Assembly: GCA_049322475.1 (NCBI GenBank)
Contig: JBMOQZ010000309.1
Location: 1,320 to 65,319 of the forward strand
DNA from: Myxococcota bacterium
Lineage (GTDB): Bacteria; Myxococcota_A; UBA796; SXON01
Direction of reading: 5' to 3'
DNA: 64,000 nt
Every line of letters begins with the position of its first letter. The first letter of the stretch is position 1. The position numbers were made by a program, and so were the translations under genes. Shown one piece after another: positions 18,105 through 58,759 of this stretch. Below the pieces are notes generated by a model. That model did not search any database. It was not told the DNA's origin and saw nothing but the letters and a program-made list of their open reading frames with translations.

Positions 18105-18168
18105 GGGGGCGGCATCGTAGCGCGCTCGTGCGCCGCGAGCCGCCGCCTGCACGCGCCCCTCCCCGGGA

Positions 18169-23951: not shown

Positions 23952-23955
23952 GGAG

Positions 23956-40192: not shown

Positions 40193-40296
40193 GGGGAGTC
40201 CTCGGTCGGCATGACGAGTGGACTTGGCACGAGGCGGAGCGTCGCGAACGCCCGTCGGGTCCACCGGCGAGGCCAGAACCTGGATACATCCAGTGC

Positions 40297-41042: not shown

Positions 41043-41303
41043 TCATGCCGCCCCCTTCCCGATCTTCTCGATCAGCTCCCTGTCCCGCTCCGACAGCTCG
41101 ATCTGCACGGTGACCTTCACGCCCTTCCCGAGCAGGTACGCCCCCCAGACGAGCGCCCCGTAGGGCCCCATCGAGAGCAGGTAGTCGAGGCTCGGGCCGG
41201 CGCCGGCGGGCGCGCCGAGGCTGCCGCTGCCGTCCTGCGCGAATGCCACCGCGCACGACGCGAGGATGAGCGCCGGACCCACGCCGAGGAACCAGCGGCT
41301 CAC
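41043..41303 (-). CDS. Small membrane protein (86 aa)
   Basis: GTG at 41303 overlaps the upstream stop (GTGA). Hydrophobic segments WFLGVGPALILASCAVAFA and YGALVWGAYLLG. Confidence 0.45.
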   Translation of the reverse strand: MSRWFLGVGPALILASCAVAFAQDGSGSLGAPAGAGPSLDYLLSMGPYGALVWGAYLLGKGVKVTVQIELSERDRELIEKIGKGAA

Positions 41304-42838: not shown

Positions 42839-42839
42839 G

Positions 42840-43496
42840 TCACTTTCCCAGCTTGGGGAGGATGAAGAAGGCCGCGCCGGCGAGGCCCAGGGCCGCGACG
42901 AGCCAGCCCACGCCGGCTCCGCCGCCGCCTCCGGCATCCGGCACGGTCGGGGACGGGGAACGCGGCGCCGTCGCGTTCAGCCGGGCCAGCGCGTCGGCGA
43001 TCGCCGGGTCGCGCTCGATGAGGGCGACCTCGTCGGCGAGCGTCTGCGCCTCCTTGTAGTGGACGACGGCCCACGCGACGCCGGTGAAGGACACCGCGAT
43101 CACGGCGCCCGCCGCCGCGAGGGCGATGACGATGCCGGCCCAGCCGACGGCGATGGCCTTCCCCTTCTCCGCCTCGGTGGCCGGCCGCTCGTACCAGGTG
43201 TAGCCCTTCGCGTGCGCGGCCCAGGTCGTGAGCAGCTCGACGGTCCGGCGCAGCTTCCCCGTGAGCTCGGGGTCGCCGGGCTTCGCGGCCAGCGCCTGCA
43301 CCGCGGCCACCTGCGCACGGACCAGCCGCGCGCCGGTGTCGGCCACGATGGTCCGGTACGCCGCGACCACGCGCGCCACCGCGTTGCCGTTCTGCTCCAC
43401 TGCGGTCTGCACGCGGCTGAGCGACTGCTCCGCGGTGATGCGCATCGCGTTGATGCGCTCCGTGACGGCGTCGGCGTTGATCGGCAGGGTGGTCAC
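42840..43496 (-). CDS. Membrane protein (218 aa)
   Basis: GTG start. TM segments AIAVGWAGIVIALAAAGAVIAVSFTGVAWAVV and GVGWLVAALGLAGAAFFILP. Confidence 0.55.
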   Translation of the reverse strand: MTTLPINADAVTERINAMRITAEQSLSRVQTAVEQNGNAVARVVAAYRTIVADTGARLVRAQVAAVQALAAKPGDPELTGKLRRTVELLTTWAAHAKGYTWYERPATEAEKGKAIAVGWAGIVIALAAAGAVIAVSFTGVAWAVVHYKEAQTLADEVALIERDPAIADALARLNATAPRSPSPTVPDAGGGGGAGVGWLVAALGLAGAAFFILPKLGK

Positions 43497-43498
43497 GT

Positions 43499-44377
43499 TC
43501 AGCTCCCGGTGCGGCGCGGGTCACAGCCCACACCCGCCGCGGTTGGGGCCGCGCCCGGGGCGGGCGGGGCGGGCTGCGCTGGCGAGCCCTCCGGGTTCGG
43601 CGTGAGCTTCTGCTGGATGCGCTGCTTCACCAGCGGGTACAGCACGAGCGGGAGGATGCCGACGTTGTCCCCGGCGATCTTCTTGACCGCAGCGTCCGAG
43701 ACGAGCTGCACGATGAATAGGCCGGGGCTCACGGTCGCGACCATCGCCCGCTGGCCGGGGCGGGTCTGGATCTGTCCGCCGTCACCCAGCGGGATCGGCT
43801 TCGACCACTTGGGCGCGAAGGCCGACTTCACGGTGTCGAGCACGTTGCGCTTCGGGGCGGCCGGCTTCGCGGGCGCGGAGGCCGCGGGCCGGGCGGGGGC
43901 GCCGGGCTTGGCCTTCGGCTTGAACGGCCAGACGCCGAGCTCGGCGTCGAGCCAGTTCCCGTCGCCCTCGGTCTCGGGCGCGTCGGGCAGCTCCTCGAGC
44001 TCCTCGTCCGGGTCGTCGTCCTCGTCGGCGGGCTCCGCCTCGGGGATGTCCTCGAGCGCGGCGTCCATCTCGTCCTCGCCCGGCTTGAGCGCGCGGCGGG
44101 GCTTCTTCGGCTTCCAGCCGAGCAACTTCAGGTCGCTCATCACTACGCGGAGGTTGGTCTTGGCCTGGCGCACGGCGCCCTTCCAGCCGAGCGGCTTCCG
44201 GATGCGCAGATGCGCGATCCGCTTCTTCAAGCGGAACGCCTTGCGCAGCTTGCGACGGATCTCGCGCTGCTTGGGCGAGCGCTTGCGGCGAGGGCCGGCG
44301 ACGCCGTCGCGGGCGAGCTCGCCGGCGAACTCGACGCGGTTGACGACGCGGGCACGGATGTAGCGGGACGAGGTCAT
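43499..44377 (-). CDS. Charge-block protein (basic N-terminal ~95 aa, then an acidic run, then a Pro/Ala/Lys linker and a C-terminal domain)
   Basis: ATG at 44377 overlaps the upstream stop (ATGA). RRKRSPKQREIRRKLRKAFRLKKRIAHLRIRK.. is followed by DEMDAALEDIPEAEPADEDDDPDEELEELPD. Confidence 0.55.
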   Translation of the reverse strand: MTSSRYIRARVVNRVEFAGELARDGVAGPRRKRSPKQREIRRKLRKAFRLKKRIAHLRIRKPLGWKGAVRQAKTNLRVVMSDLKLLGWKPKKPRRALKPGEDEMDAALEDIPEAEPADEDDDPDEELEELPDAPETEGDGNWLDAELGVWPFKPKAKPGAPARPAASAPAKPAAPKRNVLDTVKSAFAPKWSKPIPLGDGGQIQTRPGQRAMVATVSPGLFIVQLVSDAAVKKIAGDNVGILPLVLYPLVKQRIQQKLTPNPEGSPAQPAPPAPGAAPTAAGVGCDPRRTGS

Positions 44378-44946
44378 CGAGACTCCCTGCGCCGGGAGCG
44401 GCGCGAACGACGGGGGGTGCGGTGGGCGTCGGGATCGCGGCGGAGACCGGCGAGGCGGACGCGGGTGACGATGCGCTCGTGGCACTGGCGGCCGTCGAGG
44501 CGCTCCTCCAGCATCCCGAGACGCGCGGAGGGGTCGTCGAACCAGACGGAGCCGTTGACGACGTAGCGGACGATGCAGTGGTAGAGCCCGTGGCCGCCCT
44601 CGCGGACGTGCGTCGTGAGCGCGACCTCCGCCGGGATGCTCTCGAGCCGCGCGGCCCGCGCCTCGGTGTAGCCGGGGTCGCGCGGTGACAGCGCTCTCCA
44701 CCCCCGCGCGATGAGCTCACCCGCACGCGCGGACGCGAGCGCGTCGCAGTCCTCCCAGCCCTGCGCGAGGAGCTGGATGTAGTCGGACCAGGTCTCCTCC
44801 TCCTCGCGCGCGTACCGAACGCTCGTCGCGTAGAGCAACGGCAGCGACGGCCGCTCGCGGAGCAGGCGCGCGTTGCAACGGGCCAGCCAGTTGAGCAGGC
44901 TGACCGCGTCGCGTTCGTTGAAGGTGAGGGCGACCGTGATGTTCAC
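44374..44946 (-). CDS. Transglutaminase-like (papain-fold) cysteine peptidase
   Basis: Cys motif AQGWEDCDALASARAGELIARGW. His/Asp motif GLYHCIVRYVVNGSVWFDDPS (H...W.DP). Confidence 0.55.
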   Translation of the reverse strand: MNITVALTFNERDAVSLLNWLARCNARLLRERPSLPLLYATSVRYAREEEETWSDYIQLLAQGWEDCDALASARAGELIARGWRALSPRDPGYTEARAARLESIPAEVALTTHVREGGHGLYHCIVRYVVNGSVWFDDPSARLGMLEERLDGRQCHERIVTRVRLAGLRRDPDAHRTPRRSRRSRRRESR

Positions 44947-44973
44947 GACGGCGTCCGTGGGGTGGGAGTTGGA

Positions 44974-45387
44974 TCAGGTGGTGAGCTGGAAAGGGCCGTT
45001 CGAGACGGCGTCGACGGTGCCGTAGACCGTGGGGTTGGTGCCGCCGCCGAGCACCAATCGCGCCCGGATGTACGGGAGCAGCGCGACGTTCGCGGCCTCG
45101 ATCACCTCGAGGTAGGTGCCCGGGGCCGTGCGGCTCACCCCGGTCGCGAGGTCGAGCCAGGTCGAGCCGTCGACCGAGCCCTGGATGACCCACTGCGCCG
45201 TCGGCGAGGTGGCGCCGCCGGAGAAGTTCATCGAGGTGACGAACCGGAAGTCCTGGGCGTCGTCGGTCTGGAGGTCCCCGTTGCCGGGCAGGATCCGGTA
45301 GGTGGTCCCGTTCGTGGTGACCGCGACCGCGGCCGTCGACAGGATCTGCAGGAGCTTGGTGGAGAGCTGGTAGGCGTAGCAGCGCAT
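44974..45387 (-). CDS. Small beta-sandwich protein (137 aa)
   Basis: Alternating beta-strand pattern. WVIQGSVDGSTWLDL resembles discoidin/jelly-roll type domains. Confidence 0.5.
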   Translation of the reverse strand: MRCYAYQLSTKLLQILSTAAVAVTTNGTTYRILPGNGDLQTDDAQDFRFVTSMNFSGGATSPTAQWVIQGSVDGSTWLDLATGVSRTAPGTYLEVIEAANVALLPYIRARLVLGGGTNPTVYGTVDAVSNGPFQLTT

Positions 45388-45405
45388 GGCGGCAGTTCCC
45401 GGGGG

Positions 45406-46038
45406 TCAGAGGTGGAGGAGGAAGACGAGCCGCCAGGCGTAGTTGCCCGAGGGCAGGACGAGGCGGACGGTGGCGGCGTCCCCGATGAGGGCGCCGGGCG
45501 AGGGTTGGGCGTTGCCGGGGTACCGGCCGCGCGTGACGCCGTTCACGTCACGGAGTTCGAGGAACGAGGTGGAAGCGAGGGCGTTGTCGGAGAGCTCGAG
45601 GCGGCCGAATCGGGCCCAGGGGGGCGGCGACACGTCGACGTTGGCTCCCTGCGCGACGTCCGCGAAGCTTCCGCGCGCGGTGAGTTGGTTCTCGGTGTCG
45701 CAGTACCCGTCGGCGATGGCCGCCCGCGCCTGGATGCCCGCGGATGTCGAGAGGTTGGCCCCGAACACTTGGAGCATCGTCGCGTGGACGCAGATCCGGG
45801 CGCAGCGCGGGACGTCGAGGACCGCGGTGCGCGTGGCGCCGCCGCCGCCCGACCACACGAGCTTCGCCACCCAGGGCGTCTGCTCGTCGGACCAAAGGTC
45901 GACGATGCGCCACGCACCCTCGCCATGTCCGGAGGACTGGGCCGTGAGCACCTCCGTCTCGGTGCCCGTCACCCCGGCGGTCGCGGAAGCGGGGAGCTTC
46001 GCGGTGCCGGAGCGACGGGAGAGCTGGCAGGTGCCCAC
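45406..46038 (-). CDS. Beta-rich protein (210 aa), jelly-roll-like
   Basis: Coherent ORF 18 nt upstream of the next gene, with strand-like segments (TRTAVLDVPRCARICVHATMLQVF, VRLVLPSGNYAWRLVFLLHL). Confidence 0.5.
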   Translation of the reverse strand: MGTCQLSRRSGTAKLPASATAGVTGTETEVLTAQSSGHGEGAWRIVDLWSDEQTPWVAKLVWSGGGGATRTAVLDVPRCARICVHATMLQVFGANLSTSAGIQARAAIADGYCDTENQLTARGSFADVAQGANVDVSPPPWARFGRLELSDNALASTSFLELRDVNGVTRGRYPGNAQPSPGALIGDAATVRLVLPSGNYAWRLVFLLHL

Positions 46039-46055
46039 GGCTCACCCCGGCGCGA

Positions 46056-46814
46056 TCAGCAGCGGGCCTGGCGGACGCGCACCTTGCCGTAGAAGGAGAG
46101 CTTCAGGGCGGTGGTCGTCGAGCCGGCCGTGTAGTTGATCGTGACGGGCACGCCGGCCTTCAGCACGCGGCCGGAGAACCCGGGCCCGTGGTAGGCGGTC
46201 GGCGCGAGCAGGGCCGCGTCGAGGTTGTCCAGCACCACCGGGTCGTCGCCGGAGATGATGGTGTTGATCGTCGCGCTGGTGTCGCCCGTCGCGAAGATCT
46301 TGGACAGGTGGAGGCTCGTCCGCGGCGTGAGGGTCACGCTCATGGACTGGCCCAGCGCGGTGGCCACGGAACCGGTGACGGTGACGTTGCGCTGCACGAC
46401 CTTCCCCTTGCTCGCCTTCTTGAGGCGGCCCTTGAGCTGCTTGTTCTGGCGCGCGAGGCGGCTCTGGCGACGCTTGCTGCGGCGCTGGGCCCGGCGACGC
46501 TTGCGGGCCGCTCCGACGTCGTCGCCGAAGTCGTCGCCCAGGTCGTCCCCGAGGTCGTCGCCCAGGTCGTCCCCGAGGTCGTCGCCCAGGTCGTCCCCGA
46601 GGTCGTCGCCCAGGTCGTCGCCGAAGTCGTCGCCGAAGTCGTCCCCGAGGTCGTCCCCGAGGTCGTCCCCGTCGTCCTCGTCGTCGTCGCCGTCGAAGTC
46701 GGCGCCGAAGCCGGGGTGGCGGAAGCCGTCGAGCGAGGCGCGCAGGGAGGTGCGGTCGACGAGGCACTCCCCGTCGGCGGTGAAGGTGACGAGGGCCCAG
46801 ATGGGAGCGGTCAT
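46056..46814 (-). CDS. Protein with 13 tandem GDD[LFV] repeats, an Arg/Lys block and a C-terminal beta-rich domain
   Basis: ATG at 46814. ..DGDDDEDDGDDLGDDLGDDFGDDF(GDDL)x7GDDFGDDVGAARKRRRAQRRSKRRQSRLARQNKQLKGRLKKASKGK.. is followed by about 130 aa of beta-strand-like sequence. Confidence 0.6.
   Translation of the reverse strand: MTAPIWALVTFTADGECLVDRTSLRASLDGFRHPGFGADFDGDDDEDDGDDLGDDLGDDFGDDFGDDLGDDLGDDLGDDLGDDLGDDLGDDLGDDFGDDVGAARKRRRAQRRSKRRQSRLARQNKQLKGRLKKASKGKVVQRNVTVTGSVATALGQSMSVTLTPRTSLHLSKIFATGDTSATINTIISGDDPVVLDNLDAALLAPTAYHGPGFSGRVLKAGVPVTINYTAGSTTTALKLSFYGKVRVRQARC
46518..46670. repeat. Coding tandem repeat, 12-nt unit (24-nt super-unit gtcgtcgcccaggtcgtccccgag), about 13 copies
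   Basis: Read directly from the sequence. Encodes the GDD[LFV] array of the minus-strand gene 46056..46814. Confidence 0.9.
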
Positions 46815-46885
46815 GGCAGTTGTCCTTGGGTGAAGAGGAAATTCAGGAGTTGGGTGGATGGGTGGGAGACGCGGAGGGGCGGCGA

Positions 46886-47536
46886 CTACTCGTCGTCCTC
46901 CTCGCGGTCGCGGCGGGCGCGGATGAAGCGCTGCTTGCGGCGGCGGCGCCGACCGGCGACGTCGTCGTCGCCCTCGGTGCCCGGCGTCATCCGGACCATG
47001 CGGGCGATCTCGCCGATGTCGTCGGCCGCGATCTGGCGCGCCGCGGGGACGCCGGCGGTGGCCGGCGCGGCGCCGGGGGCCGGCGCGGCGGCCGGGGCGG
47101 GGGTCGTGGCCGGCGGCGTCGCCGGGGCGTTCTTCTTGTCGGCGAGCGCGCGGCCGGCGTGGCGACCGATGCGCCCGACGCCCGCGGCGAGGAGACCGTT
47201 GCCGATCGCCAGCGCGTGGCTGCCGCCCTTGCCGTTCATCGCCTGGTAGAGGCCGTAGCCGCCGACGACGAGGCCGCCGCCGATGCGCAGGTCGACGGGC
47301 CCGAGGTCCATCTTCTCCTCGCCGAGGTACCCCTCCGCGAAGGACGCCGCGAACACCGTGCCCTGCGTCTCGGCCGTGGCGATCATCGCCTCGGCGATGG
47401 ACTCGGTCACTTCCTTGGCGCGCTCGATGCGGCCGCCGAGGCTCTTGATCTTGTCCACGGCCTCGTTGAGGAGGCCGGTCTTCTTGCTGTCGGCCGGCTT
47501 CTCGCCTGCGATGACCTTCTGGAGGGCGGTGCTCAT
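46886..47536 (-). CDS. Hypothetical protein (216 aa) with a glycine-zipper-like hydrophobic core and a basic/acidic tail
   Basis: ATG at 47536. GGGLVVGGYGLYQAMNGKGGSHALAIGNGLLAAGVG. Tail is GRRRRRKQRFIRARRDREEDDE. Confidence 0.55.
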   Translation of the reverse strand: MSTALQKVIAGEKPADSKKTGLLNEAVDKIKSLGGRIERAKEVTESIAEAMIATAETQGTVFAASFAEGYLGEEKMDLGPVDLRIGGGLVVGGYGLYQAMNGKGGSHALAIGNGLLAAGVGRIGRHAGRALADKKNAPATPPATTPAPAAAPAPGAAPATAGVPAARQIAADDIGEIARMVRMTPGTEGDDDVAGRRRRRKQRFIRARRDREEDDE

Positions 47537-47647: not shown

Positions 47648-47721
47648 CCAACCGCAGCCAACCGCGGTGGGGGCGGGTTTTGCGGTTGGCGAGGCCTTCC
47701 GTGGACCGGCTGCGCGGTTGG
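47648..47721. promoter_or_regulatory. Four GCGGTTGG motifs (two reverse, two forward) in the divergent intergenic region 47537-47800
   Basis: CCAACCGC at 47648 and 47658. GCGGTTGG at 47682 and 47714. The two inner copies are each preceded by TTTTG. Confidence 0.55.
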
Positions 47722-47800: not shown

Positions 47801-48295
47801 ATGACGACCTGGTTCGTGTTTCACGGAGTGACCTTCGACCACGAGTTCCACGGAGGCTTCCTGTGGGCACCCTCCGCCGATCGGGACGGGAAGCGGAAAC
47901 CCGATTGGCTCGCCGTCGGAGAGGTGCGCCGCGGCGACGTCGTCTACTCGTGCAGGGCGCGCATCATCACGCACGTCCTTGTCGCCACCGCGGATGGAGC
48001 CGCTGCAAGGCGCCCCGCTCCACCCTATCCGCACCCCGACGGCGCCACCTCGGATGGGAATTCCGTGGCAGTGCGGTACGCCGAACTGCCACGGCCGCGG
48101 GTTGCGCTGGACACCATCAAACGGGAGGCGCTGGAGCTGTTCACCGGGCCCGGTGGTCCCCTCGACCAGCGTGGGCACGGGAACATGGGATACCTGTACC
48201 GGCTCAACGAGGGTGCGGCCGAGTACCTGCGAGCACGAGCGTTACGAGTGTTTGAGCCAGAGCTTGAGCGCATTCGCGCTCAAGCGCTCCAGTAG
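47801..48295 (+). CDS. PUA-like/EVE-like protein (tentative), paralogue of 7764..8225
   Basis: ATG at 47801 (MTTWFVFHGV..). See the alignment noted for 7764..8225. Confidence 0.5.
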   Translation: MTTWFVFHGVTFDHEFHGGFLWAPSADRDGKRKPDWLAVGEVRRGDVVYSCRARIITHVLVATADGAAARRPAPPYPHPDGATSDGNSVAVRYAELPRPRVALDTIKREALELFTGPGGPLDQRGHGNMGYLYRLNEGAAEYLRARALRVFEPELERIRAQALQ

Positions 48296-48363
48296 GGACC
48301 CGGCACAAGCCAAGGTATTGAGGCCGTGGTCGGACCTTCAGGAAGCCGCGGCGACGGCGACCC

Positions 48364-50031
48364 CTACTTTGCACCTCCCTTGGCTTGCAGGGACTGGAAC
48401 GCTCGCAGAACTCCGGCCGGGAGCGCGGCGGTCGCGGTCCCCTCGATGCGCGAAAGCGTCGCCTGCCCAATGCCGAGCCTCGCCCCGAGCTCCTTCTGCG
48501 TGAGGCCACGGGCACGCCTGTAGGCGAACAGGTCGGCGCCTGTGACGGTCGCCTCGCCGGCCGGCGGCGGGAGCGCCTTGGCGGCGACGGGCGCGACCGC
48601 TTGCTGCGGCAGCGGGGGCTGGGGCGCGAGAGTGGGCACGACGAGCGCCTCGACGAGGTCGCGGACGGAGCGGACGCGCCATGGTCCGTCCGCTCTCGCC
48701 GCAAGGGCGGCGACCGCGTTGGCGAGCGCCGCGGTGATGTCGTCGGCCACCGTGACGAACCGCTGCGCCTCCTCGCCCCGGAGCGCGACGATCGCGAAGG
48801 CACGGGCGGGACCGACGGCCACCTGTGGCGCCGGGGCCGCGGGCGGCGCAGCCTGAACCGGGGCGACTGCGGCAGCGGTTTCCTCGAGGGCAGGCTCGAC
48901 GACTACGACCGCGGGCTGCTCGACGGACAGCGGGGCGGGCGCGACTGGCGCCGGTCTCCCTGCCGGGATGCCGTGGCGCTTCCGGTACATGCGGACGCCC
49001 TCCGAGGTCAGCCCCGACCGCGAGGCCACCTCGGCGTCGCTCAGCACGCCGATGATGTCGAGGAAGGCGTCGAGTTTCGAGGAGCGACGCGAGCGGGACT
49101 CGCTCGGCGCCGCGACGTGCTCGTCCGGCGGCTGCACGGGCTCCGCCTTCTCGGGCGGGGGCCGGCCCTCGTAGCCAGGGATCCCCCGCCGCGACCGGTA
49201 CTTCGCCACCGCGTGCGACGACACGCCCGCCATCGCGGCGATCTCCGAGTCCGGCGCGGTGCCGAGCAGGTCCCGGAAGGGCTCGATGGCGGAGCGCTTC
49301 GTGCGCTCCGTGGGCTCGCTTGCCGACGTGGCGGCTGGCTTGCGCGCCTCCCCGGTCCGGTAGCGGAACCCGTCGTAGGCCGGGATGCCGAGCTTCCGGC
49401 GGTAGGCGCCGATGACGCCGCGACTCACGCCGGCCTCGTCGGCGATGACGTCGTCCGCGATGGTACCGAGTCGTTCGCGGTAGACGGCCAGGGGATCCGC
49501 CGGCGCCTCCTGCGCGGCCTCGACCGTGGAGGGCGGCCGCCGGACTGTCTCGGTCGGTGACCCCTCCGTGGAGACGCGACGACGCAGCACAACGGACTCG
49601 GCGTCCCCGTTCTGCACCCGGACGGAGGGGAGCGGCTCCTGCCTCGGCGCCGTGCCAAGGCCGGGCGGCGGCCGCAGGAACGGCGCGATCCCGTGCTCGC
49701 GGCGGTACACCTTCACCTCGTCCACGGACACGCCGGCCAGCTGCGCGACCTCGGCGTCCGGCATGCGGCCCACCTTGCTCCGGTGGCGATCGAGGGGCGC
49801 GCGGTCGTCCGTCGGCGGTGCCTCGGGCGGCGCGGGATCGTCCGCGGACTTGCGCTTGGGTCCGCGGGGCATGTTCACCTTGGTCTCGCCCGCCAGCTCG
49901 AGCGCGCGTCGGAGCGTGTGTATCGGGAGTCCGAACCGCTCCGACAGCGCGGCGTACGACAGGGTGTCCTTGATCGAGAGCAGCTCCGGCCACCACGGGG
50001 CCGAGGGGACGTCTTGGGGGGCGATGCTCAT
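48364..50031 (-). CDS. DNA-binding protein with 4-5 tandem HTH repeats plus a C-terminal XRE-type HTH (555 aa)
   Basis: ATG at 50031. Repeats are DAEVAQLAGVSVDEVKVYRREHGIAPF, DDVIADEAGVSRGVIGAYRRKLGIPAY, DSEIAAMAGVSSHAVAKYRSRRGIPGY and DAEVASRSGLTSEGVRMYRKRHGIPAG. The C-terminus is RRARGLTQKELGARLGIGQATLSRIEG. Confidence 0.7.
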   Translation of the reverse strand: MSIAPQDVPSAPWWPELLSIKDTLSYAALSERFGLPIHTLRRALELAGETKVNMPRGPKRKSADDPAPPEAPPTDDRAPLDRHRSKVGRMPDAEVAQLAGVSVDEVKVYRREHGIAPFLRPPPGLGTAPRQEPLPSVRVQNGDAESVVLRRRVSTEGSPTETVRRPPSTVEAAQEAPADPLAVYRERLGTIADDVIADEAGVSRGVIGAYRRKLGIPAYDGFRYRTGEARKPAATSASEPTERTKRSAIEPFRDLLGTAPDSEIAAMAGVSSHAVAKYRSRRGIPGYEGRPPPEKAEPVQPPDEHVAAPSESRSRRSSKLDAFLDIIGVLSDAEVASRSGLTSEGVRMYRKRHGIPAGRPAPVAPAPLSVEQPAVVVVEPALEETAAAVAPVQAAPPAAPAPQVAVGPARAFAIVALRGEEAQRFVTVADDITAALANAVAALAARADGPWRVRSVRDLVEALVVPTLAPQPPLPQQAVAPVAAKALPPPAGEATVTGADLFAYRRARGLTQKELGARLGIGQATLSRIEGTATAALPAGVLRAFQSLQAKGGAK

Positions 50032-50114
50032 GCGCGTGTCTACCGGGCTCGGCGGAGGGTAGCGCGACGGCTCCGCGCCGCACAAACCGCGCCTCACAGG
50101 TACACTCGCGACAG

Positions 50115-51788
50115 ATGACCATCGGTACGCACACCCCGAGGCGTCCGGATGACGCCGGCCTGAGCATCGGTGAGCACGCCAATACCGGCGTGGCTGAGCT
50201 GTTGGATCGCGCTTGGCGCGCGTGGGATCTCGGCGACGGCGAAGGCCTCCTCGCCCTGATCGCGCAGGCCCGCAAGCTCGGGCCCCTCGACCTCGCGACC
50301 GTCGCATGGATGGACGAGGCCGAGGCCGTGGCGCGCGAGCAGGCCGACATCGCGCGGTTCCAGCGGACGCGCGCACTGCTCCGGGGCGGCAACCTCCCCG
50401 ACGGGCTGCGTGCCTGGCTCGGCCTCTCCTCCTCCGCGCGCGCCGCGATCCGGCAGGAATTCGACCTGCGCGAGTTCCGCTGGCTCGACGAGCTGGACGC
50501 CGGGCGGCTCGACGCGGTGCTCGCGCTCGGGCGCGCCCTCGCCGCGATGGAAGGGGGCGACGTCGGCGAGGCACGCGCCCTGCTCGATCCGCACCGGCGG
50601 CTCCTGGAGGCGCTCCCCGACGGGCGCGACGCGCTGGAGCGAGCGCGGGCCGCCCCCGCACACGCGCCGAAGGAGGAGCCGGTCCGCGTCGTCGCCCCGC
50701 CGCCGCCCGCGAGCTCGGTGTCGATCGCCGCGCTGGCATCGCACATGGCCGCGGGGGGCACGTTCAAGGTGGAGGCCCCCTCCGCCGACTGGTCCCTCGT
50801 GCTCGCGCTGGCGCTGCGCGACCTGTTGCCCGGGAAGGACGCGGATGGCGACCTCGCGCGGATCCAGAAGGTGATCGACGGGCGCGATGCCTGGAAGGGG
50901 CTCCCCGCCGCCCTTGCCGTGCGCCTCATCGAGCTCATCGCGGCGCGTCTCCGCTCGCTGCAGGTCGCCGGGATGCCCGATCGACGCATCGACCTCGCGT
51001 TCTCCTGCATCTCCACGTGGATGAAGAAGGAGAAGCCAGGCTTCGCCTACGGTCTGATGCGCGAGCACCGTCCGCGCGGGAATTCCTGGGAGGAGGACGT
51101 GGACGCGGCCGTCGACGACCTCTACGACGCCCTGCCGGCCACGGAGCCCACGCCCAAGGTGGGGAAGCGCCTCGCAGCCCTCGAGGCGCTCGTCGGCGAG
51201 TTGGGCACCTGCCCGGAGGAGCTGCGTGACGCGGTGCGCGCGCAGATCCGCGCCGAGGTGAGCGTGCTGCTCGCGGAAGGCGTATCTGCGCGGAACACGC
51301 GCTTGGTGCACATCGTCGCGCCGGTGGCCGACGAGCTCACCGGGCCCGACATGCGTACCCTTCGGCGTGCCGCGCGCGCCGCGGTCGCCTCCGCCGCGGC
51401 GGAGCCCGAGGACGACGACGAGGTCGAGGGCCCCATCCCGGACGACTGGGCCTGGTGGTGGGTGACGCGAGGGAAGCGCGCCGTGATGGTGGGGGGCGAC
51501 CCGCGCGAGCCCAACCGCGTGCGTCTCGAGAAGGCCTTCGCGTTCAGCGAGCTCGCGTGGGAGCAGGCCGAGTACAGCCGCAACTCGCTCCAGAAGGTCC
51601 GCGACCGCGTTCGCAACGGAGGCGTGGACATGGTGATCATCCTGTCGCGCTTCGTGGGGCACGACGCCGACGAGGTCATCCAGCCCTCGTGCCGGGAAAC
51701 CGGCGTGCATTTCGTCGCGGTGAAGAGCGGCTACGGAGTGGCTGGCATCCGCCGGGCGATCGAGCGCTTCGTGTCGCTTGGGAGGTGA
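50115..51788 (+). CDS. Hypothetical protein (557 aa) with a DUF2325-like C-terminal domain
   Basis: KRAVMVGGDPRE.., GGVDMVIILSRFVGHDADEVI and GVHFVAVKSGYGVAGI resemble DUF2325 as I recall it. Divergent from the multi-HTH gene (83-bp spacer). Confidence 0.5.
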   Translation: MTIGTHTPRRPDDAGLSIGEHANTGVAELLDRAWRAWDLGDGEGLLALIAQARKLGPLDLATVAWMDEAEAVAREQADIARFQRTRALLRGGNLPDGLRAWLGLSSSARAAIRQEFDLREFRWLDELDAGRLDAVLALGRALAAMEGGDVGEARALLDPHRRLLEALPDGRDALERARAAPAHAPKEEPVRVVAPPPPASSVSIAALASHMAAGGTFKVEAPSADWSLVLALALRDLLPGKDADGDLARIQKVIDGRDAWKGLPAALAVRLIELIAARLRSLQVAGMPDRRIDLAFSCISTWMKKEKPGFAYGLMREHRPRGNSWEEDVDAAVDDLYDALPATEPTPKVGKRLAALEALVGELGTCPEELRDAVRAQIRAEVSVLLAEGVSARNTRLVHIVAPVADELTGPDMRTLRRAARAAVASAAAEPEDDDEVEGPIPDDWAWWWVTRGKRAVMVGGDPREPNRVRLEKAFAFSELAWEQAEYSRNSLQKVRDRVRNGGVDMVIILSRFVGHDADEVIQPSCRETGVHFVAVKSGYGVAGIRRAIERFVSLGR

Positions 51789-51791
51789 GCG

Positions 51792-52094
51792 ATGGGGAAG
51801 TGGAAGCCGCGCGGAGATGTGAAGCTGGACCGCGGGCAGTTCACGATCACTACGCCGGACGAAGGCGCGGTCCTGCAGGAGCTCATCGAGCGCGCGGCGG
51901 TCAACACCGTGAAGCCCGGGCACGCGTGGTCGCGGATCGAGGCGAAGGTCGACGAGAAGGGGAAGCCGCTCCGCATCGGCTACCTGACGTTCCACCTCGA
52001 CGCGCACAAGCGCGTGCTCGAAGTCGTCGAGACCTGGGACGGGAAGGAGACGGCGAGGCGGACGCGGTCGCTCGACGAGGGCGGGGCGAACTGA
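51792..52094 (+). CDS. Hypothetical protein (100 aa)
   Basis: Starts 4 nt after the preceding stop. Its last 12 codons lie inside repeat copy 52058..52104. Confidence 0.5.
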   Translation: MGKWKPRGDVKLDRGQFTITTPDEGAVLQELIERAAVNTVKPGHAWSRIEAKVDEKGKPLRIGYLTFHLDAHKRVLEVVETWDGKETARRTRSLDEGGAN

Positions 52095-52104
52095 CCTACG
52101 TTCC
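52058..52104. repeat. 47-bp direct repeat, copy 1
   Basis: gcggacgcggtcgctcgacgagggcggggCgaactgacctacgttcc. Identical to 52477..52523 except for one base. Confidence 0.9.
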
Positions 52105-52159
52105 GGGCGCTCGGGCACATGGCGAGGCCATGCCCGCTCATCAGGGCGCCCGCAGAATG

Positions 52160-52357
52160 TCAGCGCCGCTGGCGTCCCGTGAGGTAGGCCGATGTCGAGC
52201 CGTCCCAGCCGCAACGTGCGCAGCGCTGCTCCGCCCAGACGTGTTCGCAGGCAGGGTGGCCGTACAGCTGGTGAGCACACTCCGCGCAGAGGTGCGTCAT
52301 GACGGATGCTTGAGGCAGAAAGGTGCTGCCGCACTCATCGCACCGCTTCTGGTCCAT
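52160..52357 (-). CDS. Small zinc-ribbon protein (65 aa; may start further upstream at a non-ATG codon)
   Basis: MDQKRCDECGSTF..HLCAECAHQLYGHPACEHVW..RCARCGW. Lies entirely between the two 47-bp repeat copies. Confidence 0.4.
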   Translation of the reverse strand: MDQKRCDECGSTFLPQASVMTHLCAECAHQLYGHPACEHVWAEQRCARCGWDGSTSAYLTGRQRR

Positions 52358-52476
52358 GCCGGACGATTGGCACGCCGCCCGTTGCTGGTCAAACTCATAG
52401 GCCCGTTTCGCGAGCTCCCGGACCTTCTCGACGAGGACGGTCGCCTCGGCGAGGTGATGGCCCTCGAGCAAGCGAA

Positions 52477-52523
52477 GCGGACGCGGTCGCTCGACGAGGG
52501 CGGGGAGAACTGACCTACGTTCC
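52477..52523. repeat. 47-bp direct repeat, copy 2
   Basis: See 52058..52104. Overlaps the stop codon (52515-52517) of the minus-strand gene 52515..54032. Confidence 0.9.
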
Positions 52524-54032
52524 CCTCCTGCGCAACCGCGCGACCTGCCACGGGAGCGAGTCGCCGTCGAGATTGCGCGCCGTGAAGCCACCCCAGGAGC
52601 CCCCGCCGCTCTCGAGCGGCTTCCGGCAGCGGCGCGCGTCGTCCCAGGCCCGGAAGTAGAGGTACTCGTCCTTGTTCGCCGGGTCCTTCCACGGCGCAGG
52701 GAATGATGGGGCCTCCGCCTCGTACCAGGCCCGGTCCTTCGCAACGTAGGCGTCCATCTCCTCGTCCATGGTCGCGGGGTCCACGATGTCGAGCACGTGC
52801 TCGCCGACGAGCGTGAAGCCCGCGGGGTCCTCGCGGAGGAGCGCGTGGCCCACCGCGCCGTGCTGCCCGAACAAGCGGACCCACCGCGTGAAGCCTGCGC
52901 GCGCGAAGACCTCGGGGATGACCGGCTCCGGCACGTGCTGCGGCAGCGGGATGGGCCACGCGAGGTCCGCGAGGACGGGAGCCTCGATGCGGATGGTCCC
53001 CGAAGACACGCCTACCACCTTGCCGTCCTTGTTCTCGATGACGCCGGGGTCCTGGTCGGGCACATCGACCTGCTCGGCTTCTTCCTTCGGTGGCTTGGGG
53101 GGACGCGGACGGATGCGCGCGACCTCCTCACGCCACGCGGCCACCGCCTCGTCGAACCCGGGACCGAATGCGAGCGCCTTCCCCTCGAAGGCGTCGACCA
53201 CCACCCACCCGGCACCCGCGGGGATTCGCCCCTCGAACGCGGCCTCGCGCAGCGCCCACAACGCGCGGCTCCACGCGCCCGAGACGCCCGCGGGCATCGG
53301 GAGTGGGAACAGCATGCGGTGCGGCACCGCGCGCGCGGGCTCCATCTCGAGGACCATCTCGGCGAGGCGTTCGATCGCCTGTCCCTTCCGGTCGAGGTCC
53401 GCGCGGCACAGGAGCGGGAGCGGCGTGGGCGTCGGCGGACGGGAGAGTGGGTCGACGACGAAGGGCCGCGTCGTCCAGTACCGCCCGTAGGTGAAGGTGT
53501 CGCCGGCGGACCACACGGCTTCGCAGCGGAGGCCCCGATCGTCGTAGCGGATCTCGACCGAGGCGTGGCCCGCGCGGATGTGGAGCTCGCCGCCGCGCAT
53601 GAGCGGCCCGGTCGGGACGATGTCCGGCTCGGGGTCCTTCTCCCAGTACGGCGGGTCGCCGGGCTTCCAGTCGTCGGGCTCGTCCTCCGGCTTGAGCCCG
53701 CCCGGGTTGTACATGACCGGCCCCTTCCACTGCCCGATGCCCGCGATCCAGGCATGCTCGAGGAGCGGCACCGGGACGATCCAGTCCGGGCGCTCGGGGT
53801 CGCGCAGGTAGAGGCGCCTGCGGATTTCGCCGCCCTCCGGGTCGATCCACGCGCGCGCGCCGAGCGTCTCGACGACGAGGTCGAACAGACGGGCCGCATG
53901 GTTCATCGTCGCGACCGACCGGAGGATGGCGAGCTGCGCGGCCTGCTGCGGGAGGTGCCCGACCGTGAGGAGTCCCTCGCGTTCGTCCCAGACCTTGTAG
54001 TGCTCCTGGAGCTCGCCCATGGGTGCGAGCAT
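52515..54032 (-). CDS. Hypothetical protein (about 501-505 aa)
   Basis: Coherent ORF with candidate starts at 54032 or 54020 (MLAPMGELQEHYKVW..). No motif recognised. Confidence 0.55.
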   Translation of the reverse strand: MLAPMGELQEHYKVWDEREGLLTVGHLPQQAAQLAILRSVATMNHAARLFDLVVETLGARAWIDPEGGEIRRRLYLRDPERPDWIVPVPLLEHAWIAGIGQWKGPVMYNPGGLKPEDEPDDWKPGDPPYWEKDPEPDIVPTGPLMRGGELHIRAGHASVEIRYDDRGLRCEAVWSAGDTFTYGRYWTTRPFVVDPLSRPPTPTPLPLLCRADLDRKGQAIERLAEMVLEMEPARAVPHRMLFPLPMPAGVSGAWSRALWALREAAFEGRIPAGAGWVVVDAFEGKALAFGPGFDEAVAAWREEVARIRPRPPKPPKEEAEQVDVPDQDPGVIENKDGKVVGVSSGTIRIEAPVLADLAWPIPLPQHVPEPVIPEVFARAGFTRWVRLFGQHGAVGHALLREDPAGFTLVGEHVLDIVDPATMDEEMDAYVAKDRAWYEAEAPSFPAPWKDPANKDEYLYFRAWDDARRCRKPLESGGGSWGGFTARNLDGDSLPWQVARLRRRGT

Positions 54033-54081
54033 ACGCCTTCGCCGGAGGGCCTTCGCGATAGAGTTGCGTCCGAAGGTGCCC

Positions 54082-55119
54082 ATGCCCGTCACGCTCGTCC
54101 GCAAGTCCATCTCCGTCGACGTGCACGACGCCGACGCGGTGCGCGCCTGGCTCAAGGAGAGCGTCGCGCTCGAGATCAAGCTCAAGGGTCAGCCGATCAC
54201 CCAGCTCGTGTTCCTCGCCGACGGCTACGAGGAGGTGCTGGACCTGACGACCGCCGTCCGGGACGACCGCGGCGCGAGCATGGGCGCGACGTTCCAGATG
54301 CTGCGCCGGCGGCCGCAGGTCGAGCGCGCGTTCGCCATCGTCCGCGCGGAGATCACCGACAAGGAGGACAAGGAGCACTCCTTCGCCCTCGTGTTCGAGG
54401 AGATCGCGGAGCCCGACGAGCCCCGGCGGTGGTGGATGTCCATGCAGGAGTTCCACACCGACCCCAACACCGAGCTCGGCCACCTGATCGGCGACTGGAA
54501 GGACGCGGCGTACGAGACCACCGACATCAACCACCTCATGCCCTTCTTGCGCGAGTTCGCGATGCCGCCGCCCGGCAGCAGGCCGGCTCGCGTCCTGCCT
54601 CCGCGGGCGACGCAGCCCGACATCCAGGTGGCGATGGACAACCTGCCGCCGAACGCGCCCTCGCCCACCACCGCGAAGATGATGGTGGAGCTCGCCGGGC
54701 AGCTCGCCGTCGGCGATCTGCTCAAGGGCGCCGTGAAGGGCACGGTCGTCGTCCGCTACGCGCAGCGGGTCTGGGAGATGTGGGTGCTGGGCGGTGAGAT
54801 GCCCACCGAGCTGGAGGACATGGTTCGCTACATCGCGAACAAGCGTGAGCCGCCCGCAGAGGGCGTCGCCGTCGCGATGGTCGCGATCATGCCGCAGGAC
54901 GTCCCGCCCGTGCCGTTCGTGCAGGTCATCGGCGAGATGGACGGCAAGTTCGTCGAGACGCGCGCGCCCATCGAGTTCCCGGAGGGTCCGGCGGGGCCGA
55001 AGCGCCTCCGCGAGATCCGCTGGTGGGACGCGAAGCCCGTGCCCGAAAGCGGCATGTGGCTCGGCGTGGACCCGAACGTGACGTTCGACTTGGGGCCGCT
55101 CAACGTCGGCGAGGGGTGA
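54082..55119 (+). CDS. Hypothetical protein (345 aa)
   Basis: ATG at 54082 (MPVTLVRKSISVDVHD..). Divergent from the previous gene. No motif recognised. Confidence 0.55.
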   Translation: MPVTLVRKSISVDVHDADAVRAWLKESVALEIKLKGQPITQLVFLADGYEEVLDLTTAVRDDRGASMGATFQMLRRRPQVERAFAIVRAEITDKEDKEHSFALVFEEIAEPDEPRRWWMSMQEFHTDPNTELGHLIGDWKDAAYETTDINHLMPFLREFAMPPPGSRPARVLPPRATQPDIQVAMDNLPPNAPSPTTAKMMVELAGQLAVGDLLKGAVKGTVVVRYAQRVWEMWVLGGEMPTELEDMVRYIANKREPPAEGVAVAMVAIMPQDVPPVPFVQVIGEMDGKFVETRAPIEFPEGPAGPKRLREIRWWDAKPVPESGMWLGVDPNVTFDLGPLNVGEG

Positions 55120-55400
55120 TCGCGTAGTCCCGTCGGGCGATTCCTCGCCTGCGCCGACGGCCGGTTGGCCCCCCGTTCCCTCCCCGGCGGACACCGGTGT
55201 GAGCGCGTGATGCCGTTGGCGGCCCCTGCCTACCGTTCAGCGGTTGAAGGGTATGGGCCCGTTCAGGCACACGCAGATCGCGCGTCTCCGAGGGTGCGCA
55301 ATGCGTATGGTAGGCATCCCGACGCAAGCATCGGCTCCGTGATCTCGGGGCCAGCGGCGTCAGCCGGAGGTGGACAGAAGCCCCTCCCGCCTCGAAGGCG

Positions 55401-55409
55401 TGCTATAAT
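55401..55409 (+). promoter_or_regulatory. Perfect extended -10 element TGcTATAAT in an otherwise GC-rich non-coding stretch
   Basis: Read directly (gcgTGCTATAATg). No convincing ORF downstream before the hairpin at 55491. Confidence 0.25.
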
Positions 55410-55490
55410 GATGATGAGGACCCCCGACCGAGCCCGATGAGACGACTTTCACCTCGTCCACCCAACTCGATCAGGGATCCCGTTCGCTGA

Positions 55491-55526
55491 CCGCCGCCTT
55501 CCGCCCTGCCAGAGGGGAGGCGGCGG
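55491..55526. terminator. 12-bp GC-rich hairpin 6 nt downstream of the stop of gene 55532..56053 (no U-tract)
   Basis: ccgccgccttcc / ggaggcggcgg arms read directly from the sequence. Confidence 0.45.
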
Positions 55527-55531
55527 GCCAG

Positions 55532-56053
55532 CTACATCGTCACCTCCACGCCGGGGTTGACGGCGGTCTTCTTGGCGTCCGTGTTCCCCGCGTCGTCGGT
55601 TGCTGCCTGGACCATGGCGTAGGCGCCGTCCACGCGCCGCAGTTCGCCATTCGCGGCTGCGCGCCACATCGCGCTGTTGATGGTCTCCCGAGTGTAGGTC
55701 ATCGCCGGGTAGCGTTCCTTGGCCATCTCGTAGACCTCGGCCGGACGAAGCGGTCGCCCAGCCGTCTGCACCTGTTCGATCGCTACCTCTTTCGCGGTCG
55801 GGATCGGGGAGGGCGGGGTGGAGGCGGAGCATCCCTCAGGCACGCGGGACGCAACGGGGGCCATCGGGGACGGGATCGCGCCTTCTACCGGGGCACCGCC
55901 GACGAGCATACTGCGCACGGCCTGGAGGTGGGCGAGATCCGCCTGCGCGGCGGCTTCGCGCGCCTGCGCTTCCGCAGCTTGACGCCGCGCTTCGTCAATC
56001 GAGGCCGTACGGGCCTGGATCAGACGATCGATCTCTTTGACGGTGCTTGCCAT
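55532..56053 (-). CDS. Hypothetical protein (173 aa), coiled-coil N-terminus, possible wHTH C-terminus
   Basis: ATG at 56053 (MASTVKEIDRLIQARTASIDEARRQAAEAQ..). C-terminal string is RPLRPAEVYEMAKERYPAMTYTRETINSAMWRAAANGELRRV. Confidence 0.5.
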   Translation of the reverse strand: MASTVKEIDRLIQARTASIDEARRQAAEAQAREAAAQADLAHLQAVRSMLVGGAPVEGAIPSPMAPVASRVPEGCSASTPPSPIPTAKEVAIEQVQTAGRPLRPAEVYEMAKERYPAMTYTRETINSAMWRAAANGELRRVDGAYAMVQAATDDAGNTDAKKTAVNPGVEVTM

Positions 56054-56231
56054 GCAGGTATGGTAGCACGCCGGTTGCCGTATGCAATGGCCCCGTAGTG
56101 CCTCGACGCGAAAAAAGTTCGCCGACGTCAGCCACGCCATGCGGGGCGGGCTGGCAGGGCGCCCTCGGCGCTACGTCGCCCGCCCGGTGATCGAGTCCGG
56201 GCTGGCTGGCACGGGGTTGAAGGGTGGCATC

Positions 56232-56426
56232 GCGGTTGGCGCCTCGTTCCCTCCGCGGTGGACAACGCCCTCGCCCACCGCCGCTGCGGTTGCGAGCCTC
56301 GCTCGACGCGGTAGCCGTGGCACTTCTCGCGGTTGGACGCGCGGTTGACGCCCCCGTAGCCGCGGTCGGTGATGCGGTTGGTTTCGCTTACGGTTGGAAT
56401 GGGTGCGCGGTTGGGTGCGCGGTTGG
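56232..56426 (+). repeat. Array of 8 same-orientation (G/A)CGGTTG(G/A/C) iterons (plus 3 degenerate copies) upstream of gene 56498
   Basis: Copies start at 56232, 56286, 56329, 56341, 56374, 56390, 56407 and 56419. The last two form the tandem gtgcgcggttgg x2. Confidence 0.8.
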
Positions 56427-56439
56427 CGTATTAAACGCC
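56425..56439. promoter_or_regulatory. Palindrome GGCGT-N5-ACGCC about 58 nt upstream of ATG 56498
   Basis: ggcgtattaaacgcc. A similar GGCGT-N6-ACGCC lies at 62913-62928 upstream of the operon starting at 62891. Confidence 0.25.
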
Positions 56440-56497
56440 TGATTCCAGCGTCTTAGACCGCTCGTGGATACCGTTTCCCCATGCCGGGAGCGGCCCC

Positions 56498-57629: not shown

Positions 57630-58271
57630 ATGCCCACCAACCCGACCCCCACCACCACCCCTGCCGCCCGCGTCGACAACGCGCCCGTCTGGTCCCGCGC
57701 GACGACGGCGTTCGCCAAGGAGAGCTTCGACGTGCGCTCCCGTGAGGACTTCGTGAGCGCGCTCGAGGCCTTCGCCGACCTCTCGGCCGGCGAGCGCGCG
57801 TTCCACCAGGCGCACCTCGTCTTCCGGCAGGTGCAGGCCCTCGACGACATCCACCGCGTGCTCGTCCGCATCGACCAGAAGCTCGGCGCGATCGACGCCG
57901 ACGCCCTCGCGCAAGTCAAGCACCTGCCCGCCGTCCGCAAGGCGCTCGTCGCCATCGCGCGCGGCCAGCAGGACCTGCTCGACCTCATGGAGGACGCGCC
58001 CTCCAGCCCCCGGACCGAGGGCGACCGCGACCCCGTCGACGAGGACGAGGAGCCGGACGACGACGACCACGACGAGCCGGACGACGACGACGACGTCGCG
58101 AGCGAGCTCGCCGACGCCGTGGACGCCGACATCGTCGAGGAGGAGGACCACGGCAACGGCGACCAGCCGGCGCTTGTGCCCGAGGTGCTGACCGCCGGCG
58201 CCCGGCGCGAGCCGCGCGAGCTCACCGCCGAGGACGTGCTCGACCGGCACCGTGAAGGAGGTGGCGCGTGA
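57630..58271 (+). CDS. Hypothetical acidic protein (213 aa)
   Basis: AAGGAG RBS 5 nt upstream. Contains DEDEEPDDDDHDEPDDDDDV. Confidence 0.55.
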   Translation: MPTNPTPTTTPAARVDNAPVWSRATTAFAKESFDVRSREDFVSALEAFADLSAGERAFHQAHLVFRQVQALDDIHRVLVRIDQKLGAIDADALAQVKHLPAVRKALVAIARGQQDLLDLMEDAPSSPRTEGDRDPVDEDEEPDDDDHDEPDDDDDVASELADAVDADIVEEEDHGNGDQPALVPEVLTAGARREPRELTAEDVLDRHREGGGA

Positions 58272-58759
58272 ACCCGCTGCTCCGCGATCTGCCCGACGCT
58301 CTCCGCGTCAACCTCACCGTGCCCTCGACGACCGTGCGCCTCGGTCCCATCGCCTTCGACGCGCTGAAGACGATGCTCGGCGTGGACCTCGGCGAGGTGC
58401 TCGCCCCGCTCATGGTGGCGGCGAGGCACCAGCGGCCGCTTCCGGGCGGCGGCGTGCTCGACGTGTTCCCGCTCGCGATCCCCGAGGGCGAAGGCCTCAC
58501 GGTCCCCATCCGCATGTTCGGGGAGCTCGGCTTCAAGAACATGCACGGCTTCCTCCTCCTGATCCTGCCGGCCGCGCTCGCCGAGGTCGTGCAGGCGCAG
58601 CTCGCGCAGGAGATCGTGGACAAGCTCGCCGCGGGGCCGCGGTTCAACTACGGCACGAACGGCGGCTACGTGTGCGAGTTCGCCGTCCGCCTCGTCCCCG
58701 GGATGCGCAAGGCCATCCCGCTTGCCAACCTCGGCGAAATCGGCGTGGAGGCGGCATGA
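58268..58759 (+). CDS. Hypothetical protein (163 aa)
   Basis: 4-nt overlap with the upstream gene and ATGA overlap with the downstream gene. Confidence 0.5.
   Translation: MNPLLRDLPDALRVNLTVPSTTVRLGPIAFDALKTMLGVDLGEVLAPLMVAARHQRPLPGGGVLDVFPLAIPEGEGLTVPIRMFGELGFKNMHGFLLLILPAALAEVVQAQLAQEIVDKLAAGPRFNYGTNGGYVCEFAVRLVPGMRKAIPLANLGEIGVEAA

Follow-up and report, generated by a model that had tools for sequence, protein, structure and literature searches.

A helically phased box array upstream of an uncharacterised Myxococcota operon, most probably an autoregulatory operator or activator array

The window analysed here is a stretch of 64,000 nucleotides (70.6% GC) from contig JBMOQZ010000309.1 of the Myxococcota bacterium assembly GCA_049322475.1, sampled from a biofilm metagenome. 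Its subject is an array of short co-oriented repeats, or boxes, that lies between the gene for a 173-amino-acid (aa) protein and the gene for the 367-aa family A protein, 79–266 bp 5′ of the family A start codon (ATG at 56498; Table 1). Genes for a 213-aa and a 163-aa protein follow family A, and a second cluster of boxes, 8.7 kb from the array, precedes a leftward operon of nine genes. Together these genes, about 12 in number, constitute a module known from uncultured Myxococcota only, and none of their products had a match in Pfam, NCBIfam, PHROGs, PADLOC or PDB.

The copies listed in the initial annotation are all present at the positions given and on the plus strand. Five are exact copies of GCGGTTGG (56232, 56329, 56374, 56407 and 56419), four differ by one mismatch (56286, GCGGTTGC; 56341, GCGGTTGA; 56390, ACGGTTGG; 56362, GCGGTCGG) and two by two mismatches (56255, GCGGTGGA; 56308, GCGGTAGC). 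The exact 8-mer occurs 17 times in the window, compared with 3.81 ± 1.98 expected from 100 dinucleotide shuffles, none of which reached 17; the shuffled mean is in keeping with the rough expectation of about five stated earlier. The 7-mer core GCGGTTG occurs 33 times (15.6 ± 4.0 expected), and its density peaks at 7 per 200 bp, whereas 200 Markov simulations gave no more than 3; the clustering is thus beyond chance, as had been supposed. Apart from the copy at 26354, the 8-mer singletons outside the clusters fall within coding sequence, at a count near the chance expectation.

Comparison with related loci revealed what the repeating unit is. The family A protein has about ten close relatives (59–82% identity), and the DNA of eight of their loci was recovered, giving nine class A loci including the window. 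Co-oriented boxes stand at fixed distances from the family A ATG in 8/8 of the relatives, and box columns are 91% identical in pairwise comparison versus 49% for the spacers within the array. By this conservation, the array, first described as eight copies plus three degenerate ones, consists of 11 positional slots at −266, −243, −212, −190, −169, −157, −136, −124, −103, −91 and −79 from the ATG (spacings of 23, 31, 22, 21, 12, 21, 12, 21, 12 and 12 bp), and the aligned class A boxes extend the motif to C-GCGGTTG-R. The window copy carries two mismatches at slots −243 and −190 and one at slot −136; slot −103 is lost in the window and in its three closest relatives, with ACGGTTGG at −108 in its place in the window. 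The weak variant GCGGTTGA is itself slot-specific, and the promoter-proximal pair is exact in every class A locus but L003, which has GCGGTTGA at −91. In a Rayleigh scan the slots fall into helical register, with a peak at 11.0 bp and R=0.875 (random 99th percentile 0.79).

The motif had been reported to recur at two other promoters, of which the one at 47.6 kb proved robust, with the four exact copies described there; the other, at 26354, is a single intergenic exact GCGGTTGG without conservation support. At the second cluster, which lies between the nine-gene operon and a variable plus-strand gene, the minus-strand boxes at 47658 and 47648 stand at −129 and −119 from the left-operon ATG (47536) and point into the operon, and the two plus-strand boxes face away from it. 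This cluster is kept in L003, L007, L008 and L010 as a pair 10 bp apart followed by CAAAACACCCTTCC, and after the proximal pair both sites share AAAC-NCC-(A/C)TTCCA.

The most widespread marker of the module is the 163-aa protein, with 60 relatives at 55–87% identity, through which two distant versions of the whole module were located, L018 (on a 172-kb contig) and L020–L022. Each of them carries the left operon along with the 367/213/163 trio, the only genes common to all three motif classes within the readable DNA. GCGGTTGG was found in neither L018 nor L020. The words are GCTGTTGG, GTGGTTGG and GCTGTAGG in L018 (class B) and GCGGGAGA and GCGGGAGG in L020 (class C), giving the box words GCGGTTGR for class A, GYKGTWGG for L018 and GCGGGAGR for L020. 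In each of these two loci the new word is found at both sites and the layout of each site is kept: the 21–22-bp spacings persist (period 11.0 bp in L018 and 10.75 bp in L020), the −129/−119 pair is held within ±3 bp across all three classes, and the opposite-facing boxes start at −153 to −157 in all lineages. There are thus at least three specificity classes, changed in concert at the two sites. Judged from these comparisons, a concerted change of word within a conserved architecture points to a dedicated DNA-binding protein whose specificity has diverged, and it argues against a host factor.

Taken together, positional conservation, 11-bp phasing, orientation toward the genes and the concerted change of word argue for a functional protein-binding array at two promoters. 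We assign a probability of roughly 60% to the reading that the array acts in cis, as the docking site of a sequence-specific protein of the same module, which would regulate both operons and thereby its own production if family A is the binder. Most probably, then, the boxes serve an uncharacterised Myxococcota module of two divergent operons as an operator or activator array, one that provides autoregulation and coordinates the operons. Protomers of the module-encoded protein would occupy the asymmetric 8–9-bp boxes head-to-tail on one face of the helix, and the spacings of 12, 21–22 and 31–33 bp (period about 11 bp) would allow a cooperative nucleoprotein filament to form directly 5′ of a weak promoter that has no sigma-70 consensus. 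The same protein would bind the boxes at −129/−119 of the leftward nine-gene operon, which would place both operons under common control and make the first gene after the array autoregulated. Activation is somewhat more likely than repression, since no box lies downstream of any of the conserved elements near the gene and the orientation is in every case toward the gene under control.

The candidates for the binder include several small conventional regulators with recognisable DNA-binding domains, namely the XRE-type and MarR-like proteins encoded downstream of the 163-aa gene and a multi-helix-turn-helix (multi-HTH) protein of the cargo region. The XRE protein is 78% identical in L001, which has the same box word, and the palindrome overlapping the last box (GGCGTATTAAACGCC) resembles the sites that HTH dimers would use. 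L005 and L008, however, have no XRE gene directly downstream although all 11 of their boxes are kept, and the gene is also absent from L018 and L020; the MarR-like gene occurs only in the window and one relative. Dimeric HTH proteins, moreover, usually bind palindromes rather than asymmetric direct-repeat arrays. The multi-HTH protein, which the initial annotation had put forward for binding assays, is variable cargo absent from every related locus with the same array, and we consider a binder from this group very improbable.

As binder, the family A protein is the best candidate, through its N-terminal domain. An AlphaFold2 model built from 27 sequences (overall predicted local distance difference test score, pLDDT, 72; a model from 11 sequences, at pLDDT 50.8, was set aside as too poor) shows an N-terminal alpha/beta domain (residues 8–56 and 89–137), an acidic linker, a helix of about 100 residues (185–284; pLDDT ~90) and a helical C-terminus. 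The N-terminal domain is predicted with confidence (pLDDT 84–90) as beta-alpha-beta-beta-alpha and alpha-beta-beta elements and carries a basic beta-hairpin (RRIFKVSVWRPKGGGQYRSGRVV). Its pattern of divergence follows the box words. Between classes, identity is 58–89% for the left-operon proteins, 63–70% for the 163-aa protein and 49% for the 213-aa protein, and falls to 36–40% for the family A protein; family A residues 6–57 and 88–141 are 82–83% identical within class A versus 33–36% between classes, and residues 251–335 are 51% identical within class A versus 49% between classes. Among the 27 members, identity of the N-terminal domain is bimodal, with no pairs at 40–50%: within groups it exceeds that of the C-terminus (75% versus 56%), and between groups the relation is reversed (30% versus 42%). 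From these patterns and the model, the N-terminal domain would be the part that reads the boxes, and the long predicted coiled coil would oligomerise the protein along the array, as in KfrA-type logic. Class specificity also extends to the first 100 residues of the 213-aa protein, suggesting that the two proteins may act together. In profile searches, family A comprised about 276 clusters at 50% identity, and no Pfam domain was found in the family A clusters scanned.

Several points weigh against this assignment and against the docking-site reading as a whole. The N-terminal domain matches no known DNA-binding fold (no Foldseek match below E=0.3 in PDB or 0.05 in BFVD), and the family A protein is acidic overall. 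Classes B and C comprise one independent locus each, the co-variation being drawn from three classes, and the readable flanks extend to 10 kb, beyond which a binder could be encoded. The organisms are known only from metagenomes, and binding is predicted from sequence; with the core promoters known only as candidates, both activation and repression would fit, and 21–22-bp direct repeats beside a class-specific gene also resemble an iteron origin.

Between the array and the ATG, three short elements are conserved (Table 1). The palindrome may be a second operator or a part of the core promoter. The ATTCCA element, with a similar (A/C)TTCCA after the proximal pair of the second cluster, might serve as a weak −35-like element, and GGATACCGTT has relatives in class B (GAGATACGGTTTCG) and class C (GGAGACCGGTTGTCG). 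Scans of both sites revealed no sigma-70 consensus promoter, which fits factor-dependent promoters. At the left-operon site, a conserved CTTYCM-17-CAWMRT is a candidate weak promoter; if it is one, the box pair would lie at about −48/−58, a position typical of an activator.

One rival reading would make the boxes upstream activating sequences for the linked sigma-54 enhancer-binding protein (EBP), with an IHF site and a −24/−12 promoter downstream and one EBP subunit per 12-bp box pair, bound through two C-terminal winged helices. The EBP gene is a conserved neighbour of the module in the window, L001, L005, L020 and the P0005 contig; the protein has an intact GAFTGA motif, no receiver domain and, instead of the usual Fis-type HTH, two tandem winged-helix domains (275–338 and 351–405), the first recognition helix of which is not the same in class A as in class C. 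At the palindrome, the reverse complement of TAAACGCCTGATT fits the IHF consensus WATCARNNNNTTR in 6/9 class A loci, and GGATACCGTTyyGC fits GG-N10-GC in 5/9. The IHF site, however, is weak and not conserved in class C, and GGATACCGTT is not convincing as a −24/−12 element: despite the invariance of GGATACCGTT, the window, L006, L007 and L010 have no −12 GC, the corresponding position in L018 and L020 is without a GG-N10-GC, and the implied transcription start falls 3′ of the conserved GGAG ribosome-binding site. The left-operon site has no −24/−12 element, a consensus scan of the window gave chance-level matches only, and in L018 the 10-kb flanks of the module contain no EBP gene. A sigma-54 enhancer function is therefore improbable.

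The repeats could also act in RNA, as protein-binding motifs of a long 5′ leader, like the targets of TRAP or CsrA, which would explain why the boxes share the strand of the downstream gene. Box orientation indeed always matches the direction of the adjacent gene, and a sigma-70-like site, TTGACG-16-TATGGT (56037–56064), lies upstream of the array in the window; this site, however, is within a window-specific insertion. The 11-bp helical phasing, a property of duplex DNA, is kept across three box words, no Rfam match was obtained (E≤1), and RNAalifold gave a covariation term of +0.56 with predicted pairs between invariant box bases. We regard an RNA-level function as extremely improbable.

Of the three functions proposed in the initial annotation, an operator array of an element-wide regulator comes closest, and an iteron origin and a centromere-like partition site are both found without their defining parts. 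Either would belong to a mobile element, with promoter regulation secondary and the second cluster serving handcuffing copy control or as a second centromere. The co-oriented repeats on one helix face at about 22 bp (21–23, 31–33 and 12 bp) immediately upstream of a class-specific gene are what an iteron origin presents, with a conserved unit of only 8–9 bp. For a centromere, a repeat array upstream of an operon that it may autoregulate would fit in architecture. The second cluster contains inverted boxes, the discrete specificity classes resemble incompatibility groups, and the neighbours include mobile-element genes (a large serine recombinase and an SNF2/Eco57I methylase-helicase in the window, VapE in L018 and a transposase in L020) as well as a ParB-type HTH protein about 2.2 kb past the window end. 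Against this, family scans revealed no Rep, DnaA-like, ParA, ParM or TubZ protein among the conserved genes; the 367-, 213- and 163-aa proteins are without a Pfam, NCBIfam or PHROG match, and the modelled N-terminal domain differs from a winged helix. A conserved AT-rich unwinding element is absent (the lowest-GC 40-mers near the arrays have 45–53% GC, at inconsistent places), and GGATACCGTT is not a DnaA box, overlapping TTATCCACA only in part. Both clusters stand at fixed distances from start codons with boxes pointing into genes, unitig depth is about 21x over module and flank alike (run X1, indicating an integrated single-copy state in that sample only), and relatives lie on contigs of up to 172 kb. 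These observations make an origin or centromere unlikely. A TubZ/tubC partition system was rejected, the tubulin-like gene being an FtsZ N-terminal domain in variable cargo. A strongly AT-rich stretch was seen near one array only: the inverted repeat GACAATATAAGTATATTGTC at L020 7692–7735, where the cargo gene that precedes the class C array ends; this repeat is not conserved in the other classes.

The principle of a phased direct-repeat operator bound by an element-encoded protein is already known from KfrA, omega, ParR, iterons and MraZ. Omega of pSM19035, ParR/parC of R1 and ParG of TP228 use arrays of heptad or 11-bp repeats as operators and centromeres: a small element-encoded protein, a ribbon-helix-helix dimer that works with a ParA or ParM motor, binds short direct or inverted repeats at several promoters cooperatively and in helical phase. 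No such motor or fold was found in the conserved module. Iteron origins (pSC101, P1, F, R6K and RK2) carry iterons of 17–22 bp bound by a winged-helix Rep protein beside an AT-rich region and DnaA boxes; the array shares with them repeats two helical turns apart, proximity to the putative binder gene, extra clusters and discrete specificity groups, but has no 17–22-bp unit, winged-helix Rep, AT-rich region or DnaA boxes. MraZ, with two tandem small repeat modules of SpoVT/AbrB-like fold that assemble into rings, binds phased direct repeats upstream of its own operon (the dcw promoter), and the family A protein has no similarity to it in Pfam or Foldseek searches.

The closest functional analogue found is KfrA of the IncU plasmid RA3, a likeness of logic only. 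KfrA, an autoregulator of about 355 aa, binds DNA through its N-terminal part and oligomerises through a very long alpha-helical tail; it has an operator of five 9-bp direct repeats and a helical partner, KfrC, encoded next door (PMC7783346). Our system likewise would combine short co-oriented direct repeats before the protein's own gene with a long predicted coiled-coil tail (helix 185–284) and a helical neighbour protein. Unlike KfrA, the family A protein shows no sequence or fold similarity (no match to Pfam KfrA_N at E≤0.01), its N-terminal domain being alpha/beta with a beta-hairpin and not HTH. The 11 slots extend over 195 bp in a 12/21/33-bp pattern rather than as five contiguous repeats, a second site putatively controls a nine-gene operon, and the context is chromosomal or integrated, without IncC/KorB partners. 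In myxobacteria, the only described case of scattered repeats with an orphan element-encoded binder and operon autoregulation is the Myxococcus plasmid pMF1, in which ParB binds palindromic iterons with AGATGTCT units in a type Ib par system with a ParA ATPase (PMC3235114); its motif differs from ours and its proteins are unrelated.

What is new is the setting. The array offers a handle on a dark module, defining a regulon of two promoters and predicting a regulator. If the family A N-terminal domain is the binder, it would represent a new DNA-recognition fold with natural specificity variants, for which the boxes would be a ready-made assay, and it would tell whether the module constitutes a mobile unit that identifies itself, for example a virus-like element. 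A more far-reaching and tentative proposal, which we consider possible and still doubtful, is that family A is a new class of sequence-specific DNA-binding protein whose N-terminal domain reads 8–9-bp boxes and diversifies with the arrays into specificity classes, as an immunity- or incompatibility-like identity system that switches on the nine-gene operon, possibly the particle genes of an undescribed virus-like or transfer-agent-like Myxococcota element. The extreme charge patterns of the left-operon proteins, several of which have poly-basic tracts together with acidic (GDDL)n repeats (Table 1), would suit nucleic-acid packaging, and a virus-like role is conceivable as speculation.

Searches for the module elsewhere returned little. 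The source labels of the relatives are Myxococcota or Myxococcales. Neither megablast of 44–64 kb nor tblastn with the 545-aa protein yielded anything relevant in phage and plasmid collections, scans of viral contigs by protein and DNA pattern and of metagenomes by protein pattern gave no match, and a family A profile run against genome contigs detected one 3.2-kb contig only, in a metagenome-assembled genome labelled Bifidobacterium breve. Seven metagenome loci matching GCGGTTGN5GCGGTTGGCNNATTA were discarded as low-GC chance matches with two boxes each. A literature search on the motif returned primer and unrelated matches only.

Table 1. Features at and around the module. Positions are those of the window unless a contig is named; −, minus strand; +, plus strand.
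Feature	Position	Strand	Remarks
Main array	56232–56426	+	11 positional slots of (C)GCGGTTG(G/A)
Promoter-proximal box pair	56407–56426	+	12 bp apart
Palindrome GGCGT-ATTAA-ACGCC (GGCGTATTAAACGCC)	56425–56439		arms 5+5; overlaps last box; conserved in class A
ATTCCA within conserved GATTCCAGC	56442–56447	+	candidate weak −35-like element
GGATACCGTT	56466–56475	+	conserved; invariant in class A
Second cluster	47648–47721	both	boxes 47648(−), 47658(−), 47682(+), 47714(+)
Decayed duplicate of distal end of array (slots −266, −243)	55161–55252	+	ends in GCGGTTGAAGGGT
Window-specific insertion	55253–56214		carries the 173-aa gene
173-aa gene	55532–56053	−	
Family A gene, 367 aa	56498–57601	+	best candidate box binder (putative)
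213-aa acidic helical protein	57630–58271	+	
163-aa protein	58268–58759	+	
XRE-type HTH protein, 81 aa	58756–59001	+	in window, L001 and contigs of P0005 and P0011
MarR/IclR-type winged-helix protein, 92 aa	58998–59276	+	window and P0005 contig only
Leftward operon, nine genes	41058–47536	−	conserved; no family match
Left operon, 216 aa	46886–47536	−	Arg-rich C-terminus
Left operon, 252 aa	46056–46814	−	(GDDL)n repeats, then RRLRRIRRR-type poly-basic tract
Left operon, 210 aa	45406–46038	−	
Left operon, 137 aa	44974–45387	−	
Left operon, 190 aa	44374–44946	−	
Left operon, ~292 aa	43499–44377	−	poly-basic N-terminus
Left operon, 218 aa	42840–43496	−	
Left operon, 545 aa	41300–42937	−	
Left operon, 84 aa	41058–41303	−	membrane protein; last gene
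Variable cargo between second cluster and 366-aa gene	47803–54185		164-aa, 555-aa multi-HTH (48364–50031, −), 557-, 100- and 556-aa proteins
FtsZ N-terminal GTPase domain only, 196 aa	60109–60699	−	Pfam Tubulin E=1.4e-26; PDB FtsZ E=5e-36
Sigma-54 activator (EBP)	63174–64439 (L023 8172–9437)		runs past window end; Sigma54_activat E=1.8e-64
297-aa protein, ParB-type HTH	L023 10682–11575 (~window 65684–66577)		Pfam HTH_ParB E=6e-06; ~2.2 kb past EBP; then Usp and TetR genes
NOV_C protein			within defence/mobility context
GmrSD	5658–7754		
Type I restriction-modification, hsdR	11521–14736		
Type I restriction-modification, hsdM	16017–18596		
KAP NTPase	23836–26253		
Large serine recombinase	28945–30537		
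SNF2/Eco57I methylase-helicase, 1736 aa			within defence/mobility context

The three degenerate copies noted earlier at 55161–55247 are present, each with one mismatch (55161, 55212 and 55240), and belong to a decayed duplicate of the distal end of the array, 55162–55193 matching 56233–56264 at 28/32 positions. An insertion of about 960 bp, bounded by a direct repeat, G(C/G)GGTTGAAGGGT, at 55240 and 56215, separates the duplicate from the array; a Logan contig of the same organism ends nearby, at 55003. The insertion is absent from L003, in which the homologue of the 366-aa gene abuts the array, and the product of the 173-aa gene that it carries is likewise without a Pfam, PHROGs, NCBIfam or PADLOC match.

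The cargo between the second cluster and the 366-aa gene is absent from related loci, which have other cargo there (DUF6998 or FG-GAP proteins). The 196-aa FtsZ-type gene is also variable cargo, absent from L001, L005, L018 and L020, and PDB searches by sequence and by profile were empty but for its product; it shares a minus-strand operon with genes for 388-, 337- (weak OmpR-type winged helix) and 226-aa proteins. Borne on a region that looks mobile, such a truncated FtsZ could disturb division of the host cell. The 387- and 343-aa genes of L001, L005 and L020, considered as homologues of the 388- and 337-aa genes, are similar in length only and not homologous. A defence and mobility context occupies 1–30537 and 35054–40264. 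A solitary family A paralogue (34% identity; 26526–27650, plus strand), without 213- and 163-aa partners, belongs to a clade with at least 15 members elsewhere; upstream of it, beside the lone GCGGTTGG at 26354, lie the only two exact window copies of GCGCGGCAAG, at 26363 and 26418, 55 bp apart.

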